A stretch of DNA of 64,000 nucleotides from Shigella phage vB_SdyM_006: the sequence record MK295204. One strand, written 5' to 3'. The notes beneath the pieces are model-generated. The model was not told the origin of the DNA and did no database searches. It was given only the letters and a program-made list of their open reading frames with translations. Within the stretch, counting starts at the first letter, position 1. Each line of letters begins with the position of its first letter. This document shows, piece after piece, positions 5,832-30,789 of this stretch. Position numbers and translations under genes: made by a program.

Positions 5832-7382
5832 ATGGAAATCAAAAATAAAGATGCATTAATCGAAAAATGGGGTGGTTTTATGAGCAACCCTGATCTTGGA
5901 GTTATCGAAGGTTCTACCAAACAAGCTATTATGGCTAAAATCTTAGAAAACCAAGAAATGGATATTCAAAAATCTCCAGAATATCGTGACGAAAAAATTG
6001 CTGAAGCTTTTGGTGATTTTTTAACTGAAGCCGAAGTTGGTGGTGACCATGGTTATGACGCTAGCAATATTGCTATGGGTAAAACAAGTGGTGCTGTAAC
6101 TCAAATTGGGCCTGCTGTAATGGGTATGGTTCGTCGTTCATTCCCTAATATGATCGGGTTTGATATCGCTGGTGTTCAGCCAATGAATGGACCAACTGGT
6201 CAGTACTTCTCATTACGTTCTATTTACGGTGAAGATCCACTGGCTAAAGATGCTAAAGAAGCATTCCATCCTATGTTTGCACCAGATGCAATGTACGGTG
6301 GTCGTGGTTCTCACGAAGTATTCGAAAAAATCGAAGCTTCAAAATCATTAACCGAAGGTAAAGTTTACACATTTGAATTTGCCGAAACTGGTACTGCACA
6401 TTTACAAGCTGTAGAAGCTGTTACTATTGCAGGTACAGATGTAGAAGTAGATGTTCTTAAGAATATTGAAGCTGGTAAATTAGTAGAAATCGCAGAAGCA
6501 ATGGCAACAAGTATTGCGGAACTGCAACAAAGCTTTAATAAGTCTAAAGACAATCCATGGGATGAAATGACTTTCCGTATCGACAAACAAGTTGTTGAAG
6601 CGAAATCAAAACAACTTAAAGCAAGTTATTCTATCGAACTGGCACAAGATTTACGTGCAGTACATGGTATGGATGCTGATGCTGAGTTGAGTTCTATCCT
6701 GGCTACAGAAATTCTGTTAGAAATGAACCGTGAATTAGTTAACTGGATTAACTATACTGCTCAACCTGGTAAAACTGGTATGACATTAACCATGGGTTCA
6801 AAAGCAGGTGTATTTGACTTCCAAGACCCAATCGATACACGTGGTGCAAGATGGGCTGGTGAAAGCTTCAAATCTCTGTTATACCAAATCGATAAAGAAG
6901 CTGCAGAAATTGCACGTCAAACTGGTCGTGGTGCTGGTAACTTCTTGATTGCTTCACGTAACGTTGTTAATATCTTAGCTTCTGTTGATGTTAACGTTAC
7001 TCCAGCTGCTCAAGGTTTAGCACGTGGTCTGAATACAGATACAACTAAAGCAGTATTTGCCGGTGTTCTTGGTGGTAAATACAAAGTTTATATTGACCAA
7101 TACGCTCGTCAAGATTACTTCACTGTTGGTTATAAAGGTGCTAACGAAATGGATGCAGGTATCTACTACTGTCCATACGTTGCATTAACACCATTACGTG
7201 GTAGCGATCCTAAGAACTTCCAACCAGTAATGGGCTTCAAAACTCGTTACGGTATTGGTATTAACCCATTTGCTGATTCTCGTTCACAAGCTCCAACAGA
7301 CAGAATCACTTCTGGTATGCCTTCTTTAGATTCAATCGGTAAGAATGCTTACTTCCGCCGTGTGTGGGTTAAAGGTGCATAA
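5832..7382 (+). CDS. 23: major capsid protein
   Basis: 516 aa; near-identical blocks to T4 gp23 (GDHGY, TSGAVTQIGPAVMGMVRR, RGSDPKNFQPVMGFKTRYGIGINPF); strong terminator downstream. Confidence 0.97.
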   Translation: MEIKNKDALIEKWGGFMSNPDLGVIEGSTKQAIMAKILENQEMDIQKSPEYRDEKIAEAFGDFLTEAEVGGDHGYDASNIAMGKTSGAVTQIGPAVMGMVRRSFPNMIGFDIAGVQPMNGPTGQYFSLRSIYGEDPLAKDAKEAFHPMFAPDAMYGGRGSHEVFEKIEASKSLTEGKVYTFEFAETGTAHLQAVEAVTIAGTDVEVDVLKNIEAGKLVEIAEAMATSIAELQQSFNKSKDNPWDEMTFRIDKQVVEAKSKQLKASYSIELAQDLRAVHGMDADAELSSILATEILLEMNRELVNWINYTAQPGKTGMTLTMGSKAGVFDFQDPIDTRGARWAGESFKSLLYQIDKEAAEIARQTGRGAGNFLIASRNVVNILASVDVNVTPAAQGLARGLNTDTTKAVFAGVLGGKYKVYIDQYARQDYFTVGYKGANEMDAGIYYCPYVALTPLRGSDPKNFQPVMGFKTRYGIGINPFADSRSQAPTDRITSGMPSLDSIGKNAYFRRVWVKGA

Positions 7383-7395
7383 TCTTTAAGTTTAA

Positions 7396-7420
7396 AGCCC
7401 GGGAAACCGGGCTATTTTAT
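7396..7420 (+). terminator. terminator after major capsid gene
   Basis: AGCCCGG-GAAA-CCGGGCT followed by ATTTTATT. Confidence 0.7.
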
Positions 7421-7500
7421 TAATATTTTATCGTAAAGTATTAATAAAATATTTTAAACTCTAACAACTAAAAAGATTTATACTTTAAGAGAGAAATAAA

Positions 7501-8751
7501 ATGACCAATAAGATTCAAAAATTATTGCGCGAATCAAGTACAACAGCCAGTTCATCTAATGGACGTCCTGATCTTGTTGGGTTAACACGCGCAACACATG
7601 ATTTAATTTTTACAGATTTAATTGCAATACAGAATACAAATCAGCCAGAAGCGACTCTTTATGGTGTCAAATATTTAAATGACAATAAAGATATGAGTTT
7701 TATGACACCAGCTACATATTCTGGTGCTATAAAATCAAGAGAAAATATCGAAGAACTTGACCCATCTAAATCATATTCTAAAGATGATATGTTTAAATTT
7801 GAAGAAGTGGTTTATAAAGTCGTTAAAGATAATCCATTTACAGATTTGACGTCATTACCAAAAAATGAAGCTTTAGGCCAAGCAATTATAGATGGTTCTA
7901 TTAGATTTATGTCTGAAGCGGCATTAACTGGGCATTTTGAAAAGAAAGACGTAGAAATAGCAGAAGCTTCTGTCAGATTAGATCGTTGGAATATTCCTGT
8001 AAGAACAAGAAAAATTAAAACAGAGCTCACAGTTGAATTTGCTCAAGACTTAAATTCAAACCAGTTTGAAGCAGGTGCCGTAATTGATGACATGTTAGCT
8101 ACTATTTTAGCTGAAGATGTTAATAAAGACGTTATCCAAAAAATTATGACTGTTTCTAGTCGATATAAGGTTAAAGGAATTTCTGATAAAGGAATGTTAG
8201 ATTTAACCAAAACGGATGTTGCTCCTGAACAAGGACGTACTTTATATCGTTATATTTGTGAAATGAATGCGTCTATCGAAAGAAATACAACTTATGATGG
8301 GACATATGTTTTAGCTAGTTCAAGATGTGCTGCTATTTTGTCTGCATCAGGTTGGATGGATATTAATCCTGATTATCCTTTAGCCGCTGGCACACTTAAA
8401 AATGGCTTACCTGTTTATTCTGACCCTTGGTCTCCTGTTGACTATGTAGTTGTAGGAACTAAACAAAACCTTGGTGAGCTAGAACATGTAGGTTCTTTAT
8501 TCTATGCACCTTATATTGATTTTGATGGCGCAGGTGCTTATAAATTAGTTGTCGATCCAGATAGTTTACAACCTAAACTTGCTTTAATGGTCCGATATGG
8601 GTTATCAATTAATCCATATACAGTCATTGAAGTAGACGAAACACCTCAAAAAGAATCTATGTTAGTTCAAGGTGATGATTGGGACAATTTAGTTGGTAAG
8701 TCTAAAATGTCATATATTTTAGGTGTTCAATTACCTAAACTTATAGAATAA
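7501..8751 (+). CDS. 24: capsid vertex protein (gp23 paralogue)
   Basis: 416 aa, directly downstream of gp23; C-terminal pattern RYGLSINPY echoes the gp23 fold. Confidence 0.88.
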   Translation: MTNKIQKLLRESSTTASSSNGRPDLVGLTRATHDLIFTDLIAIQNTNQPEATLYGVKYLNDNKDMSFMTPATYSGAIKSRENIEELDPSKSYSKDDMFKFEEVVYKVVKDNPFTDLTSLPKNEALGQAIIDGSIRFMSEAALTGHFEKKDVEIAEASVRLDRWNIPVRTRKIKTELTVEFAQDLNSNQFEAGAVIDDMLATILAEDVNKDVIQKIMTVSSRYKVKGISDKGMLDLTKTDVAPEQGRTLYRYICEMNASIERNTTYDGTYVLASSRCAAILSASGWMDINPDYPLAAGTLKNGLPVYSDPWSPVDYVVVGTKQNLGELEHVGSLFYAPYIDFDGAGAYKLVVDPDSLQPKLALMVRYGLSINPYTVIEVDETPQKESMLVQGDDWDNLVGKSKMSYILGVQLPKLIE

Positions 8752-24467: not shown

Positions 24468-24475
24468 TATAAATA
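24468..24475 (+). promoter_or_regulatory. late promoter TATAAATA for inh-like/hoc-like genes
   Basis: Exact octamer 33 nt upstream of ATG 24509. Confidence 0.6.
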
Positions 24476-24481
24476 CATATA

Positions 24482-24489
24482 TATTTATA
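24482..24489 (-). promoter_or_regulatory. late promoter TATAAATA for uvsW
   Basis: Exact octamer on minus strand 28 nt upstream of ATG 24453. Confidence 0.6.
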
Positions 24490-24508: not shown

Positions 24509-25222
24509 ATGAAAATTGATCAACAATATATTGATTCTTTAACTGAAGAATATACTTCAGGCGAAATTGATAGAAAAACAGCTAAACAAAAATTAACAGA
24601 TTATGCTAAAGAATCTTTTAATTTTGATTTAAACAAACAAAAAAGTTTTGAGAATATGATTGTTCAGCTTAAAGAAATGATCGATAATTATGTAGAACCC
24701 GAATTAGAAGAACAAGATGGAATTTCTATTAAAGATCTAATTACCGCAGCTGACCAATTAGATGGTAAAAGTGTTTTTAATGATGCCAATGAAGAAGCAT
24801 TAGAATTACTTTCAGATGTTTCTTATGATGGAATTAAACCAGATTTGGTAATTAAAACACCCCAACCACAAATTACTAAAGAAGAAATTATTGATAAACC
24901 AGAAAAATCTTTAATAAGTAAGAATTTAGAAGTTAAAGAAGAAATTAAATCCCAAGAATATATGCCGGAATCGGCAAAATATGTTCTTCCTGATGGGTTC
25001 TCTCCAACTATTACATTAATTGGTAAAACTCCTGGATATTATACTCTTCCATGGTGGATTTATCAATGGATTTTAGAAAATGAAGATTGGAAAGATAGGC
25101 CAGAAGAATGCCCCGAGTATTCAGCTATTAATATTTTAAAATCATTGATTTACTTTATTAATAGAGATGGACAGGTCAAAATTAGAGAAACAAGAAATTC
25201 AAGATTTTATACCCTAAAATAA
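24509..25222 (+). CDS. hypothetical late protein (position of T4 inh)
   Basis: 237 aa; TATAAATA late promoter 33 nt upstream; assignment to Inh is positional only. Confidence 0.35.
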   Translation: MKIDQQYIDSLTEEYTSGEIDRKTAKQKLTDYAKESFNFDLNKQKSFENMIVQLKEMIDNYVEPELEEQDGISIKDLITAADQLDGKSVFNDANEEALELLSDVSYDGIKPDLVIKTPQPQITKEEIIDKPEKSLISKNLEVKEEIKSQEYMPESAKYVLPDGFSPTITLIGKTPGYYTLPWWIYQWILENEDWKDRPEECPEYSAINILKSLIYFINRDGQVKIRETRNSRFYTLK

Positions 25223-25231
25223 GGATTATAT

Positions 25232-26056
25232 ATGAGTATAGTACTAAAATTAACACCAGAGAACCCTAAAATTACTATAGGAGAATCTCAAGAATTCACC
25301 ATGACTACAGAGAATCAAACAGATGAGACTCTAAAATATGAATGGTATATTAATGAAGACATATATGAAGCCACAAATAAAAATATGACATATACACCTG
25401 ATAAATCAGGTGAATTTATTATAAAATGTAAAGTATCTTCTTTAGGATTAGAAGGGGAAACCGTTTTAGGCGAAGAATCCACCACTTTAACTGTAAATCT
25501 TAAAACTATAACCGATTTGACGACAAATATTACAGGCCCAAAAGAAGCAGAATATGGCGAAGAATTTGAACTTGTTGTAAATGCTGAAACTACAGCAGAA
25601 TCTCCTAAATATACATATAAATGGTCTAGTGGTGAAACTACAAAAAAAATAAAGGTAATTGAATCTGAAGAAGGTGAAAAAACTTTTACATGTACAGTAA
25701 CATGTAAATCAACTAATTATGAACCCGCTACTTCAACATCAGAACATAAAGTTTCTATATCAAAACCCGTAGTTCCTGAACCAGATCCGTCTTGTGAATC
25801 ATGTAGATATATTCATCCTTTAGACCATAGAGAATCAGCATATTTATGGGTAGGATACTGGGTACTAGAAGAAATAGAAAAAGCCGTGGAAGAAGGAATT
25901 GATTGGAAGAAGCCAGATGATACTGATCTAAAATATAAATGTGATTTGAAGACCCTCGCATTTATGTTAGAAAAATACCCTAATGTAGATGTACAAGAAT
26001 CAAGAAATGGATATATCTTATCTAAAGACGATATTGAAAATGGGGTTATTTACTAA
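25232..26056 (+). CDS. Ig-like domain protein, possible Hoc-like capsid decoration
   Basis: 274 aa; two roughly 90 aa repeats with Ig-like beta-strand patterns plus a C-terminal domain; position next to the inh-like gene. Confidence 0.4.
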   Translation: MSIVLKLTPENPKITIGESQEFTMTTENQTDETLKYEWYINEDIYEATNKNMTYTPDKSGEFIIKCKVSSLGLEGETVLGEESTTLTVNLKTITDLTTNITGPKEAEYGEEFELVVNAETTAESPKYTYKWSSGETTKKIKVIESEEGEKTFTCTVTCKSTNYEPATSTSEHKVSISKPVVPEPDPSCESCRYIHPLDHRESAYLWVGYWVLEEIEKAVEEGIDWKKPDDTDLKYKCDLKTLAFMLEKYPNVDVQESRNGYILSKDDIENGVIY

Positions 26057-26060
26057 ACAA

Positions 26061-26090
26061 AAAAGGGACCAATTGGTCCCTTTTTATTTT
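26061..26090. terminator. bidirectional terminator after hoc-like gene
   Basis: A-run, GGGACC-AATT-GGTCCC, T-run. Confidence 0.7.
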
Positions 26091-26359
26091 TATTTTCTAA
26101 AGATCTTACCAAATTTGCTAATCACAAAATTCTCACCAACTTTAATATCGATACGAATAGAAACATGTCCTATTGTATCAGTATTCAACATATCACTTAA
26201 AGACATTGAAGAATGTCTTTCGAAATCTTCAACAATATTAAACCCATCATTATCACAATGAGTGTCAATAAATTCTTTAAGCTTTACTGAGCTTCCTTCA
26301 GATAAAATAGGGTCATTATAGAAACGACAAGATGATTCAAATAATTTTAAAGTAACCAT
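26090..26359 (-). CDS. hypothetical protein downstream of alt
   Basis: Start set at ATG preceded by AAGGAG (MVTLKLFE...); about 89 aa. Confidence 0.4.
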   Translation of the reverse strand: MVTLKLFESSCRFYNDPILSEGSSVKLKEFIDTHCDNDGFNIVEDFERHSSMSLSDMLNTDTIGHVSIRIDIKVGENFVISKFGKIFRK

Positions 26360-26419
26360 GATATTCTCCTTTGTTGTTGATGTAAGTATAGTAACACTAC
26401 ACAAAGGAGATGTAAACAA

Positions 26420-28483
26420 TTAAATAATAAATTTTTCTGGGACAAAAGTAAGATCAACAGCTGTTGATAATAATTCTAGCCCTTTTTGACTAATTTTACC
26501 AGTATTTTCTTTTAAGAATTCTTTAAACCCAATTTTTTCGATTTTTCCTTCAGATAAAAACTTATTTCCGTCAATAAGTTCGCTTTCATCTAGTAATTCT
26601 GGATCCACTACAGATGTTTCTACTAATATTGGTCTATTAAATTCTATATCACGAGCGTTTTCATAACCGTGGATAGAATGAATCTTAAGAGCTAAACCTC
26701 TAGGTAAAATCACCTCGCATTCACTAGAGTATTTTGACATATTACCAGGAATAATAACATTGACTTTATGTGCACCTTTAATAGTTATACCCATAGAAAT
26801 GTTAATATCTGTTTTCTTAGTTGCTTTCTTACCATTAACGGCTACACCAATATTTTTTGGTGTCATAACTGTTGATATAACATCATCGAATGTTTCGGAT
26901 TCAAAAGTTACTGTAGTCGCGTTAGGTTTAATATTATCAAGAACATCATTTCGTTCCCCAAAAATAATTGGAGCTAATGAAGTCGAAATATAATTAGGAA
27001 AATATAATGTTTTATTTTTAGCAGCTTTTTCTACGTCGGCATAAGGTAATTTTTGTGCTCTATATAAAATAGTTCCTTTTTCTAACTTGGTTCCTTTTTT
27101 GAAGGCCCCATCTAAGACAGGAATTTTGTTTTCATACACAGATTTTAAACTTTTATCTTTACCAAGCAAAAAGTCGTTCATTTCTTCATATCCACGTAAA
27201 GCATAATCTGTGATAACTTTTCGCTCTTCTTCTGTTAAATCCATTTCTGTTTCGGTTCTAAATAACTCTTCTAAAGGAGTATAGAAAACATTTCTGTTTA
27301 AAGCAGAGATACAGCCTCTTAAAGCTCTAGTCTTAGCCACATTATCGTCAGGTCCATATGTTTCTAAATCTTCGGCTATTTTTTTGTAAACATCCATAGC
27401 ATTATTAGAAGTTTTGAGCGCATTGTTAATTATCAATATATACGGTTTTGCTAATTTATATTTTTCTTCACTAGATAAATGATAAAAATTTTCAACACCA
27501 TACCCAGATATGCGTTCTAAAGAATCTAATAAAAATCTAGCTTCTAGATCTGATTCTTCTTCACTCACGGCCGAATTTATTTTATCTAAAAACACAGATT
27601 TAGATTCATCAATTTTATTAAGGACATTTTTATGAACTAATGCAATTTTTGTAGAATCACTTTGGACAATAGGAGGATTATCTTGTAGTTCAATATATTT
27701 TCTTCTTCCTTCTTCAGAATAATTTTCTAAGTCTTCTGGTTTAGAAACACCATACATTGCTGATAATAATTCACGTCTAGAAACTTTAGTTTTTGAAATG
27801 ACAGATCGTTCACTTCTTGTGTTTTCTTGTGCTGCAATACTTCCTGCAATGGCTTCTAATTTAGACACTTGCTTGCCAGTTTTGTCATTGATATACACAT
27901 CACCTACTTTAGAATCGACTTTAGTATATAAGTCAGAATCAATACCAGGAATCCCAGCGATGTCTTCTAAAGGTCTGTTTTTACGATATATTAAAACATA
28001 AGCATGTTTACCTGTAAATTGATACAAATCTTCTAAGACAACAAATTTACCACCAGTACGTTGCATAGCCAGACGTTTGATTATTCTTTGTAATGTCTTT
28101 TCTTGGCCTTTCATTTTTTTAGCAGGGAATCTAAATAAAACTGCGTCCATTTTAAGTTTTTTAACTTGTTCGTATACAGTGTCAAAAATAGTATTCAATG
28201 CCCCAATAGGGTCTGAGCCTAAACCATTTCTTAATTCTGCTGCATTACCATTTTTAGACAAACTCATCAAAAACACTTGAACAAATTTATCACCTTGCTT
28301 TACTGCTTTTAATGCATCGCCTTTAGATAAATAAGACACCATTCTAACTAAAAGATTGTCATTTCCAGGAACACTGACATTCCATAATTGAGGGACCTTA
28401 GCCCTTTTATTAAGATTAATAGCTTTATATTGAGCTATTTCTGAATCAAAAACCTCATTTAAATTAATTTCATTTAATTCCAT
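26420..28483 (-). CDS. alt: Alt-like ADP-ribosyltransferase (packaged, R-S-ExE class)
   Basis: 687 aa vs 682 in T4; ART triad in order: LYRAQ (Arg), ISTSL (Ser-Thr-Ser), ECEVILPRG (Glu-x-Glu); TATAAATA late promoter upstream. Confidence 0.8.
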   Translation of the reverse strand: MELNEINLNEVFDSEIAQYKAINLNKRAKVPQLWNVSVPGNDNLLVRMVSYLSKGDALKAVKQGDKFVQVFLMSLSKNGNAAELRNGLGSDPIGALNTIFDTVYEQVKKLKMDAVLFRFPAKKMKGQEKTLQRIIKRLAMQRTGGKFVVLEDLYQFTGKHAYVLIYRKNRPLEDIAGIPGIDSDLYTKVDSKVGDVYINDKTGKQVSKLEAIAGSIAAQENTRSERSVISKTKVSRRELLSAMYGVSKPEDLENYSEEGRRKYIELQDNPPIVQSDSTKIALVHKNVLNKIDESKSVFLDKINSAVSEEESDLEARFLLDSLERISGYGVENFYHLSSEEKYKLAKPYILIINNALKTSNNAMDVYKKIAEDLETYGPDDNVAKTRALRGCISALNRNVFYTPLEELFRTETEMDLTEEERKVITDYALRGYEEMNDFLLGKDKSLKSVYENKIPVLDGAFKKGTKLEKGTILYRAQKLPYADVEKAAKNKTLYFPNYISTSLAPIIFGERNDVLDNIKPNATTVTFESETFDDVISTVMTPKNIGVAVNGKKATKKTDINISMGITIKGAHKVNVIIPGNMSKYSSECEVILPRGLALKIHSIHGYENARDIEFNRPILVETSVVDPELLDESELIDGNKFLSEGKIEKIGFKEFLKENTGKISQKGLELLSTAVDLTFVPEKFII

Positions 28484-28513
28484 TTTATCACCTTTATAAT
28501 AAGAATATATTAC

Positions 28514-28521
28514 TATTTATA
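28514..28521 (-). promoter_or_regulatory. late promoter TATAAATA for alt
   Basis: Exact octamer on minus strand 30 nt upstream of alt ATG 28483. Confidence 0.6.
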
Positions 28522-28527
28522 CCAAAA

Positions 28528-28550
28528 AGGAGACCGAAGTCTCCTTGTTT
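28528..28550 (-). terminator. hairpin terminator (AGGAGAC-CGAA-GTCTCCT family)
   Basis: 7-bp stem, CGAA loop, T-run on minus strand; between cassette gene and alt late promoter. Confidence 0.6.
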
Positions 28551-28563
28551 TTATATTATTTAT

Positions 28564-28773
28564 TTATTCACCAATTTCTTCTAAGAAATTCTCATAATCA
28601 GTTGGGAATCTTTTCCAAAACTTTTTAATTTTTTGTTCTTTATTCTTGCATTCTGCCAATGAAATCATTAAACCGTTATCAGAATCAGATTCAACTCGTG
28701 TTAATGTTAAACCTAATTCAGAAAGTGCTGTTAAGTGATTTTGTGCCAATACATATAAATATAAATCAAACAT
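28564..28773 (-). CDS. hypothetical early protein (cassette-driven)
   Basis: Start placed at ATG after GGAGTATATT within the conserved early promoter-leader cassette; 69 aa. Confidence 0.45.
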   Translation of the reverse strand: MFDLYLYVLAQNHLTALSELGLTLTRVESDSDNGLMISLAECKNKEQKIKKFWKRFPTDYENFLEEIGE

Positions 28774-28813
28774 AATATACTCCGTTGTTTCCGTGTGTTG
28801 TTTCAATATGTAT

Positions 28814-28842
28814 ATAATAACATGTCTACAGCAAAAGTAAAC
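28814..28842 (-). promoter_or_regulatory. early promoter (GTTTAC-N17-TATTAT), cassette copy
   Basis: Minus-strand GTTTAC (plus 28837-28842), 17-nt spacer, TATTAT (plus 28814-28819). Confidence 0.6.
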
Positions 28843-28861
28843 ATGTTATTGTGGCTTTTTA

Positions 28862-29098
28862 TTAAATAATTCTAGCTATCAATGCAGAAGTATTAATACT
28901 AACAGTAAATTCCATTGGCGTTTCATCTTCTTCAGAACTAATTACCATTGAATGGATTTCGGTAACACCAGATACGGATAAAACTCTATCTTCAATAATA
29001 GTTATATGTGAAGAATATTCAAAAGGACCATATGGGTCTCCATCTAATCTAGATGTATCTTTAAGCATTTTTAACAATTCAGCACTTGATAATTTCAT
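28862..29098 (-). CDS. hypothetical early protein (cassette-driven)
   Basis: Start placed at ATG after GGAGTATATA in the second copy of the cassette; 78 aa. Confidence 0.45.
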   Translation of the reverse strand: MKLSSAELLKMLKDTSRLDGDPYGPFEYSSHITIIEDRVLSVSGVTEIHSMVISSEEDETPMEFTVSINTSALIARII

Positions 29099-29135
29099 TA
29101 TATACTCCATTTTCGTATGTTGTTTCAATATGTAT

Positions 29136-29164
29136 ATAATAACATGTCTACAGCAAAAGTAAAC
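29136..29164 (-). promoter_or_regulatory. early promoter (GTTTAC-N17-TATTAT), cassette copy
   Basis: Minus-strand GTTTAC (plus 29159-29164), 17-nt spacer, TATTAT (plus 29136-29141); directly follows a terminator hairpin. Confidence 0.6.
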
Positions 29165-29185
29165 AAAAAAGAGCCTTTCGGCTCT
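29165..29185 (-). terminator. hairpin terminator upstream of cassette promoter
   Basis: GAGCC-TTTC-GGCTC followed on minus strand by TTTTTT then GTTTAC. Confidence 0.6.
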
Positions 29186-29387
29186 AAATAATTTTTGATA
29201 AATCATCTTGTATTGCTAAGATTTTATGAAAATCTGATTCTCTTATAGGACAAGACTTATCTAACTTAAATGATATTAAAGAATTCATAAAGATAGATTC
29301 TATTTGTTCTTCTAAATCATCTATTAAAATATTCTTCTGGTGATTGTCCAAAGATTTCATAAAAGTCATTTGCCTCTTGTTTATCAA
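29184..29387 (-). CDS. hypothetical small ORF overlapping ligase 3' end
   Basis: 67 aa ORF; overlaps the ligase gene by at least 44 nt in another frame, so doubtful. Confidence 0.2.
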   Translation of the reverse strand: MINKRQMTFMKSLDNHQKNILIDDLEEQIESIFMNSLISFKLDKSCPIRESDFHKILAIQDDLSKII

Positions 29388-30789
29388 GACGTCTCATTTT
29401 AACACGTGGTAAAAATAAACTATATGTTTCTCGTCCATCAACTTTTTGAGCTGCATTACATACACCCGAGATAATCATACCGACAAGTTTACCTTTCTTA
29501 TGAAGATCCCATAATAAACGACGGTCTAATTCATGACGTTTATCGAGTGGAATCCAGATTTTTTCTTTTGAACCTTTTACCTTTTCGTAATCTTTATCCT
29601 TAAAACCAGAACCACAGTCAACTAAAATAGTCCCATCTCTAGACCTTAAATTGACACCACCTAATTTTTCAGGGTCTTTAGAATGTGGATACGCACCAAT
29701 AATTTCTAAATCAAAATCTTTTTCTTCTTTAAATTTTACTTGGTCACAAGTACGTCCATCAGACCAAACACCAAGTTTATTTTTTAGAATAATACCTTCT
29801 AACTTCATATCAACATATTTTCTGTAAATAACTTGGGCTTCTTCTAAAGTCTTAACTTCTTCTGATGGAATTAATTCTAAACGTCCTGCTTTTTTAGTAA
29901 TTAATTCTAAATTTTTTAACCTTTCTTTGTAAGGTTTATTAATTTCTGAATTATCAGTCTGTGTACCTTGTGTAACTTCATAGTTAATTAGATCCCAGAC
30001 CTGGAATTTAACACAATCTGCTTCGGTTTTTGAAATGGTTCCTTGGATTGATTTATTTGCAATACCGTTACCTTCTTCTCTAGAAGCAACAATATTTTCT
30101 TCTTCGTCTTCATCAAAGAATAAATCTAGACCTTGTTTTGTTGATTTAGGAAAATAAACTAGTTCACCATCAAGAACAACGTTTCCTAATCCTTCAGTGA
30201 TAGATACAATTTCTTCTTTTAGCAAATCTAGACCAAGATATTCGCTACCAGAACGAGAATATAAATTAACTTCCCCGTCTACAACTTCGGCAAAACATCT
30301 AGCACCATCTGCTTTAAGCTGAGCTAATGCTGGGAATTTAATTTTAGATACATTAGCTTTACTAAAAGGCGCTGCTAAAAACTGCGGCTGCTTTGGTAAT
30401 AAATTTTCCCATACTTTGTTTGGAATACTTCTTCCTACACCACATTCCAAGTCACGTTTGACAATGCGTTTAATTAATGCTGCATCTTTAGGGCATAAAC
30501 TTTCTAATACATCTTTTAAAGCAGCAATTGCAGCATGTCCTGTTAAAACCCGTTCACCTAAAACATTTTCTAAAAAATCTAAAGCGTCACGAAGTGTTTT
30601 AGATTCGGTTTTAGGTTCATATTCTGGAATCTTTTTAATATGGAATTTGACTCTTTGAGAATATGTTAATCTAAACACATCTTTTACTAATAAATTGTTT
30701 TTATATTTTAAAAGAATATTTTCTTTTTCTTTTAATGAATCCGTAGAAGCTAGTTCTACAATAATATCGTATACCATACCTTTTTCCAT
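29317..30789 (-). CDS. 30: ATP-dependent DNA ligase
   Basis: 490 aa vs 487 in T4; adenylation motif FPALAQLKADGARCFAEV, plus RDLECG and GLEGIILKN blocks. Confidence 0.93.
   Translation of the reverse strand: MEKGMVYDIIVELASTDSLKEKENILLKYKNNLLVKDVFRLTYSQRVKFHIKKIPEYEPKTESKTLRDALDFLENVLGERVLTGHAAIAALKDVLESLCPKDAALIKRIVKRDLECGVGRSIPNKVWENLLPKQPQFLAAPFSKANVSKIKFPALAQLKADGARCFAEVVDGEVNLYSRSGSEYLGLDLLKEEIVSITEGLGNVVLDGELVYFPKSTKQGLDLFFDEDEEENIVASREEGNGIANKSIQGTISKTEADCVKFQVWDLINYEVTQGTQTDNSEINKPYKERLKNLELITKKAGRLELIPSEEVKTLEEAQVIYRKYVDMKLEGIILKNKLGVWSDGRTCDQVKFKEEKDFDLEIIGAYPHSKDPEKLGGVNLRSRDGTILVDCGSGFKDKDYEKVKGSKEKIWIPLDKRHELDRRLLWDLHKKGKLVGMIISGVCNAAQKVDGRETYSLFLPRVKMRRLDKQEANDFYEIFGQSPEEYFNR

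Follow-up and report, generated by a model that had tools for sequence, protein, structure and literature searches.

The question raised by this locus is whether the 274-aa protein encoded at positions 25232-26056 of the window, i.e. of the whole 64,000-nucleotide stretch of DNA analyzed in the present study, is a Hoc-type capsid decoration protein with only two Ig-like domains, and whether such an architecture would be unusual. An earlier note had proposed this reading by comparison with the T4 protein, taken to carry three Ig-like domains. This agrees with the published description, in which T4 Hoc comprises three Ig-like domains and a C-terminal domain, and the same report describes Hoc homologues whose Ig-like domains number one, two, three or ten (Fokine et al. 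2023, PMC10385173).

The reading frame is real. It runs on the plus strand from an ATG at 25232 to a stop codon at 26054-26056 (counted in the coordinates of the gene), and a Shine-Dalgarno-like AAGGA is located 7 nt 5' of the ATG. Over 2.1 kb, the region shares 99.7-99.8% DNA identity with SJ_PmiM and phiP4-3, T4-like Proteus phages of the genus Bragavirus (Straboviridae), in which the 274-aa gene is annotated as "head outer capsid protein" or "Hoc-like head decoration" and the upstream ORF as "inhibitor of prohead protease". SJ_PmiM encodes exactly this protein, phiP4-3 encodes one with at least 99% identity to it, and a 100% identical protein named head outer capsid protein has been deposited for Shigella phage vB_SdyM_006; thus, the hoc gene and its name were already public. 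The genome of vB_SdyM_006, which was isolated on Shigella dysenteriae, is 98% similar to that of phiP4-3, and Shigella dysenteriae and Proteus are an unusual host pair for near-identical phages.

Homology searches and annotation both identified the gene as hoc, encoding the head outer capsid decoration protein. The protein matched PHROG 1149, "Hoc-like head decoration" (E 1.2e-67), and its only sequence match in the PDB was T4 Hoc (5vf3_Z and others; E 3.5e-49). The HMMER alignment joins aa 4-274 to T4 Hoc 98-373 (domain E 1.2e-44), includes a C-terminal domain homologous to the capsid-binding domain of T4 Hoc (T4 281-376), and is accompanied by a second alignment, of aa 2-95 to T4 Hoc domain 1. 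With the same protein as tblastn query, 1222 phage records were matched, nearly all of them T4-like and with gene names such as hoc. The calculated pI of 4.56 is acidic and falls within the range of 4.2-5.2 published for Hoc proteins (PMC10385173). A six-frame HMM scan of the 64-kb window matched only hoc and inh, and no second Hoc-like gene was found there.

The earlier note had also read two internal repeats and a distinct C-terminal domain in the protein, and the AlphaFold2 model obtained herein (input alignment of 18 sequences; mean pLDDT 88) bears this out, with two beta-sandwich domains followed by an alpha/beta domain. First, Ig-like domain 1 (aa 1-92; 25232-25507, plus strand) is an all-beta sandwich with strands within aa 4-89 and pLDDT values of 81-97. 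Second, Ig-like domain 2 (aa 93-181; 25508-25774, plus strand) is likewise all-beta, with strands within aa 97-177 and pLDDT values of 93-97. [quoted passage not shown] A Foldseek search of the PDB with this model returned tandem Ig, FN3 and PKD proteins as top matches, and the N-terminal domains of RB49 Hoc (3SHS) ranked second (E 2e-8). Inside domain 1, the coding strand contains a terminator-like hairpin (CACCTGATAAATCAGGTG, with a T-rich run after it; 25395-25412) that is probably a chance match.

The two repeats are very diverged. The BLASTP comparison of aa 1-92 with aa 93-181 was not significant (E 0.67), and the relationship is therefore visible only at the level of profiles and structures: hhalign profiles built from 17 homologues aligned domain 1 with domain 2 at 97.8% probability (E 9e-13) over 84 columns with 13% identity. 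The HMM search for Big and I-set domains that had been proposed as a check fails formally, with no Big or I-set hit in the Pfam search of the protein and no hit of any family at the gathering score; the best match, restricted to domain 1, was PKD_4 with 20.6 bits where the cut-off is 27, and no Pfam hit was obtained for the C-terminal domain. The fold is nonetheless Ig-like in the model, in the Foldseek matches and in the profile homology between the two domains, and some relatives carry precomputed PF00801, PF18911 or PF13927 assignments. As the Pfam scores are below threshold here, "Ig-like" is used for this protein as a statement about the fold and not about Pfam family membership.

The residues through which T4 Hoc contacts gp23 have been given by Fokine et al. 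(PMC10385173), and these positions are retained in the window protein. The T4 residues Y293, H295, H299, R300, Y304, W306 and W310 correspond to Y193, H195, H199, R200, Y204, W206 and W210, and the T4 stretch Q354, E355-S356-R357-N358-G359 and Y360 corresponds to Q255-E-S-R-N-G-Y261. The E-S-R-N-G loop and the aromatic and basic contacts to gp23* are thus preserved with one conservative W-to-Y change (T4 W309 to Y209), and T4 D313 is conservatively replaced by E213. The partner is conserved as well. The major capsid protein gp23, the presumed partner of Hoc, is encoded at 5832-7376 on the plus strand (tblastn, 73% identity to T4 gp23), and its Hoc-binding loop, GSKAGVFDFQDPIDTRGAR, is identical at 18 of 19 positions to T4 G326-R344, GSKAGVFDFQDPIDIRGAR, including D336, P337 and R344. 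The genes for gp23 and gp24 lie at 5832-8622, about 18-19 kb upstream of hoc.

Homology, domain architecture and the conservation of the interface on both partners make the mechanism known from T4 the best supported one for the window protein. According to this mechanism, Hoc would be a dispensable, acidic, monomeric fiber produced late in infection. Upon expansion of the capsid, one monomer would dock at the center of each gp23* hexamer through its C-terminal domain, by means of several aromatic residues and the conserved QESRNG loop, and the two tandem Ig-like (PKD/Ig-type) beta-sandwiches would point outwards. If they behave like their counterparts in T4 and RB49 Hoc, these domains might mediate adhesion to bacterial or mucosal surfaces that is weak and reversible, and might add negative charge to the capsid surface. 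[quoted passage not shown]

On its upstream side, the neighborhood of the gene is that of T4 as well. The earlier note had described an inh-sized neighbor, and this neighbor is inh itself, annotated as an inhibitor of prohead protease (24509-25222, plus strand; 237 aa; PHROG 1051, E 1.4e-74). T4, RB49, PEi26 and Acinetobacter phage Berthold all share the order of uvsW on the minus strand followed by inh and hoc on the plus strand. As for the late promoter mentioned in the earlier note, an exact -10 motif of the T4 late type, TATAAATA, was found 33 nt 5' of inh (24468-24475, plus strand), and no late-promoter motif was found directly 5' of hoc. With 15 copies of TATAAATA in the AT-rich window against an expectation of 16.9, the motif shows no enrichment, and the promoter call therefore depends on its position and on a promoter annotated in the Bragavirus phage vB_PmiM_Pm5461 at the corresponding site; on these grounds it is the probable promoter of an inh-hoc unit. 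The gap between inh and hoc is 9 nt, and this short gap, together with the lack of a motif directly before hoc, suggests that hoc is probably co-transcribed with inh. Downstream of hoc, a GC-rich hairpin, GGGACCAATTGGTCCC, between A and T runs scores as a bidirectional intrinsic terminator at 26060-26085 (both strands), at a site equivalent to a terminator annotated in Pm5461.

Several further features of the surroundings were recorded. A second TATAAATA motif, on the minus strand at 24482-24489, faces uvsW and is 7 nt from the plus-strand copy; the opposed pair between uvsW and inh resembles divergent late promoters and agrees with the promoter pair annotated in Pm5461. On the 3' side of hoc (26090-30789), a small ORF (PHROG 25116), alt (687 aa) and the DNA ligase gene gp30 are found on the minus strand, where T4 instead has 24.3, 24.2, rnlB and gene 24 downstream of hoc.

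With the interface and the locus in view, a different location for the protein was considered, namely that this Ig-bearing protein is an accessory adhesin of the tail or neck rather than a decoration of the hexamer centers. Ig-like domains are frequent on phage tail proteins, and some database entries sharing the C-terminal domain are labeled as tail fiber or tail protein. These labels are unverified automatic annotations, however, and the C-terminal domain is the capsid-binding domain of T4 Hoc with its gp23 contacts conserved, the cognate gp23 loop is also conserved, and the inh-hoc gene order is that of T4; a position on the tail or neck is accordingly very improbable. Homology, the AlphaFold2 model and synteny agree with the proposal in the earlier note of a Hoc-like decoration protein with two Ig-like domains, one fewer than in T4, and there is very little doubt that 25232-26056 encodes the Hoc orthologue of a Bragavirus phage, with a C-terminal domain that would dock on gp23* hexamers and two Ig-like domains that would project from them.

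Comparison with named Hoc proteins places this orthologue among close and distant counterparts. T4 Hoc (PDB 5VF3, 8T1X) shares with it homology over the full length, the same capsid-binding domain (ESRNG loop and aromatic contacts included), tandem Ig-like domains, an acidic pI and the position of the gene 3' of inh near uvsW, whereas it differs in having three Ig-like domains in 376 aa instead of two in 274 aa, at an identity of about 34%. The Hoc proteins of PM2 and Pm5461 are encoded at the same locus with the same flanking genes and possess a capsid-binding domain that is 88-89% identical, but they are 359 aa long with three Ig-like domains, two of which belong to a W-x-[ST]-G-[EQ] subtype represented by a single domain in the window protein. 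Two Ig-like domains and a capsid-binding domain are also present in the Hoc proteins of Edwardsiella phage PEi26 (273 aa) and Serratia phage 92A1 (273 aa) and in the second Hoc of Serratia phage Muldoon (314 aa), although these phages belong to other genera and the proteins are 36-47% identical to the window protein. RB49 Hoc likewise forms a linear row of Ig-like beta-sandwiches (3SHS), but with three domains and 18% identity.

The earlier note had implied that a two-Ig form is noteworthy, and this point is not supported. Close relatives are about 182, 274 or 360 aa long, according to whether they have one, two or three Ig-like domains. For a broader census, a 93-aa C-terminal-domain query of a word-indexed protein database returned two hits only, a limit set by the sensitivity of the tool, and a full-length query and an exhaustive search of cluster representatives were therefore used. 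[quoted passage not shown] In this sample, which is biased towards the architecture of the query itself as a result of ranking by score, the two-Ig length class comprised 36 proteins, the three-Ig class 17 and the one-Ig class 15, the rest being up to 1473 aa long. The two-Ig length class is thus large, and it is the commonest among the relatives sampled. Proteins of 1879-3347 aa with 11-20 Hoc-Ig-like repeats were also seen among the best hits, several of them apparently without the capsid-binding domain. Since the protein had already been deposited, its length class is the commonest in the sample and a variable number of Ig-like domains has been published, the window Hoc is an already annotated, ordinary member of the family and a published architectural variant.

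Within Bragavirus itself, the difference from the three-Ig proteins is informative. The Ig-like domains are 22-34% identical to those of PM2 and Pm5461, in contrast to the 88-89% identity of the capsid-binding domain, and at the DNA level blastn similarity to these phages extends through the last base of inh (25222), is lost between 25223 and 25799 and returns at 25800, in the linker, with flanks of 82-89% identity. Domain 1 matches PM2 domain 1 (34% identity, likewise to T4 domain 2), and domain 2 is equally similar to domains 2 and 3 of PM2, which are of one subtype. A simple loss of one domain relative to PM2 was considered and rejected, because the entire Ig-coding part lacks DNA similarity and domain 2 shows no preference between PM2 domains 2 and 3. 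To judge from these alignments, it looks as if the whole Ig module has been replaced as a cassette on a constant capsid anchor, and such a replacement fits the reported behavior of hoc, which is unusually plastic in T4-type phages (PMC2839356; PMC10385173). The GC content of the Ig module (0.317) equals that of the window, and base composition thus gives no indication that it was imported recently. Another gap in similarity to PM2 and Pm5461 lies inside inh (24799-24975, aa ~98-156) and coincides with a predicted disordered linker.

These data also bear on the possibility that the 274-aa protein derives from a three-Ig Hoc by a recent deletion, is now in decay and has lost its function in capsid decoration. 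The congeners PM2 and Pm5461 do have a 359-aa protein with three Ig-like domains, and T4 Hoc is dispensable (PMC10385173). Against such decay, the ORF is intact, all three domains are modeled at high confidence, the capsid-contact positions are retained (two as conservative replacements), and the protein is unchanged in SJ_PmiM and the Shigella-isolated phage and nearly so in phiP4-3. Moreover, the break with PM2 is not a clean deletion but a stretch of DNA dissimilarity between conserved flanks, and two-Ig lengths are the most frequent in the sample of relatives. Decay by recent deletion can hardly account for these observations.

A further proposal, which is compatible with an intact Hoc orthologue, is that the two-Ig form is adaptive, its shorter fiber and unrelated Ig sequences conferring another ligand specificity or reach suited to the urinary or gut niche of Proteus, and that the Ig module passes between phages as a cassette. 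The contrast between the diverged Ig part and the conserved capsid-binding domain, together with the stop of DNA similarity at the hoc start codon and its return at the linker, favors this proposal. The known plasticity of hoc points in the same direction, and single Hoc substitutions are reported to alter the adherence of T4 to mucus. On the other side, the GC content of the module does not differ from that of the window, and relaxed constraint on a dispensable surface protein could explain the divergence. We therefore regard adaptation as possible but doubtful, and an ordinary Hoc orthologue of a Bragavirus phage remains the reading adopted here.

A weak pairwise match between Hoc aa 206-260 and Inh aa 183-231 (E 0.007) drew attention to the neighboring Inh protein. 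In the AlphaFold2 model of Inh, a helical N-terminal domain and a disordered segment (aa 107-155) are followed by an alpha/beta C-terminal domain (pLDDT about 93), and a Hoc-type domain was assigned to aa ~160-237 (24986-25219, plus strand) from profiles and the predicted fold. In a profile comparison, hhalign of 106 Hoc C-terminal domains against 121 Inh proteins gave 94% probability (E 1.5e-7) over 60 columns, compared with 1-2% in reversed-sequence controls. HMM-to-sequence searches from Hoc to Inh and from Inh to Hoc succeeded in both directions, always at the C-terminus of Inh. Foldseek assigned the Hoc-type fold to Inh with a probability of 0.87 but an E of only 0.27, and in a viral fold library, ranks 7-25, which follow the Inh orthologues, were mostly Hoc proteins (~60 columns, RMSD 1.3-3.5 Å). 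The most conserved residues of Inh, W182, W183 and E227-T228-R229-N230, align with the gp23 contacts W309, W310 and E355-S356-R357-N358 of T4 Hoc. PF26097 and PF26098 are precomputed for Inh in Pfam. Based on these results, the C-terminal domain of Inh is most likely homologous to the capsid-binding domain of Hoc, and the adjacent and co-oriented position of inh and hoc in several genera suggests that the anchor domain was duplicated in tandem long ago. No report of this relationship was found in the literature searched, the coverage of which was incomplete.

Inh has traditionally been classed as an internal head protein and inhibitor of the prohead protease. One source groups it among the internal head components, which sits oddly with an anchor for the outer surface. 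Inh might nevertheless dock on gp23 hexamers through its Hoc-type C-terminal domain, although this is doubtful and much less probable than the homology itself. If so, Inh would possibly compete with Hoc for identical hexamer sites, and the inh-hoc unit would encode two paralogues with one common gp23-hexamer anchor domain. This domain would then serve as a general capsid anchor for swappable cargo, which would be a helical domain in the case of Inh and, in the case of Hoc, an Ig cassette with one, two, three or a larger number of domains.

The finding of a two-Ig Hoc matters little in itself, as it amounts to the routine annotation of a dispensable decoration gene. The two-Ig and three-Ig Hoc proteins of Bragavirus nevertheless provide a clean within-genus case of cassette-like Ig replacement, and the pair could be used to test the effects of fiber length and Ig sequence on adherence in the urinary-tract niche of Proteus and might also be of use for Hoc-based display. 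The anchor domain common to Inh and Hoc is the only lead worth keeping, and if Inh does dock on the hexamers, the location and action of a poorly understood head protein of T4 would need to be revisited.
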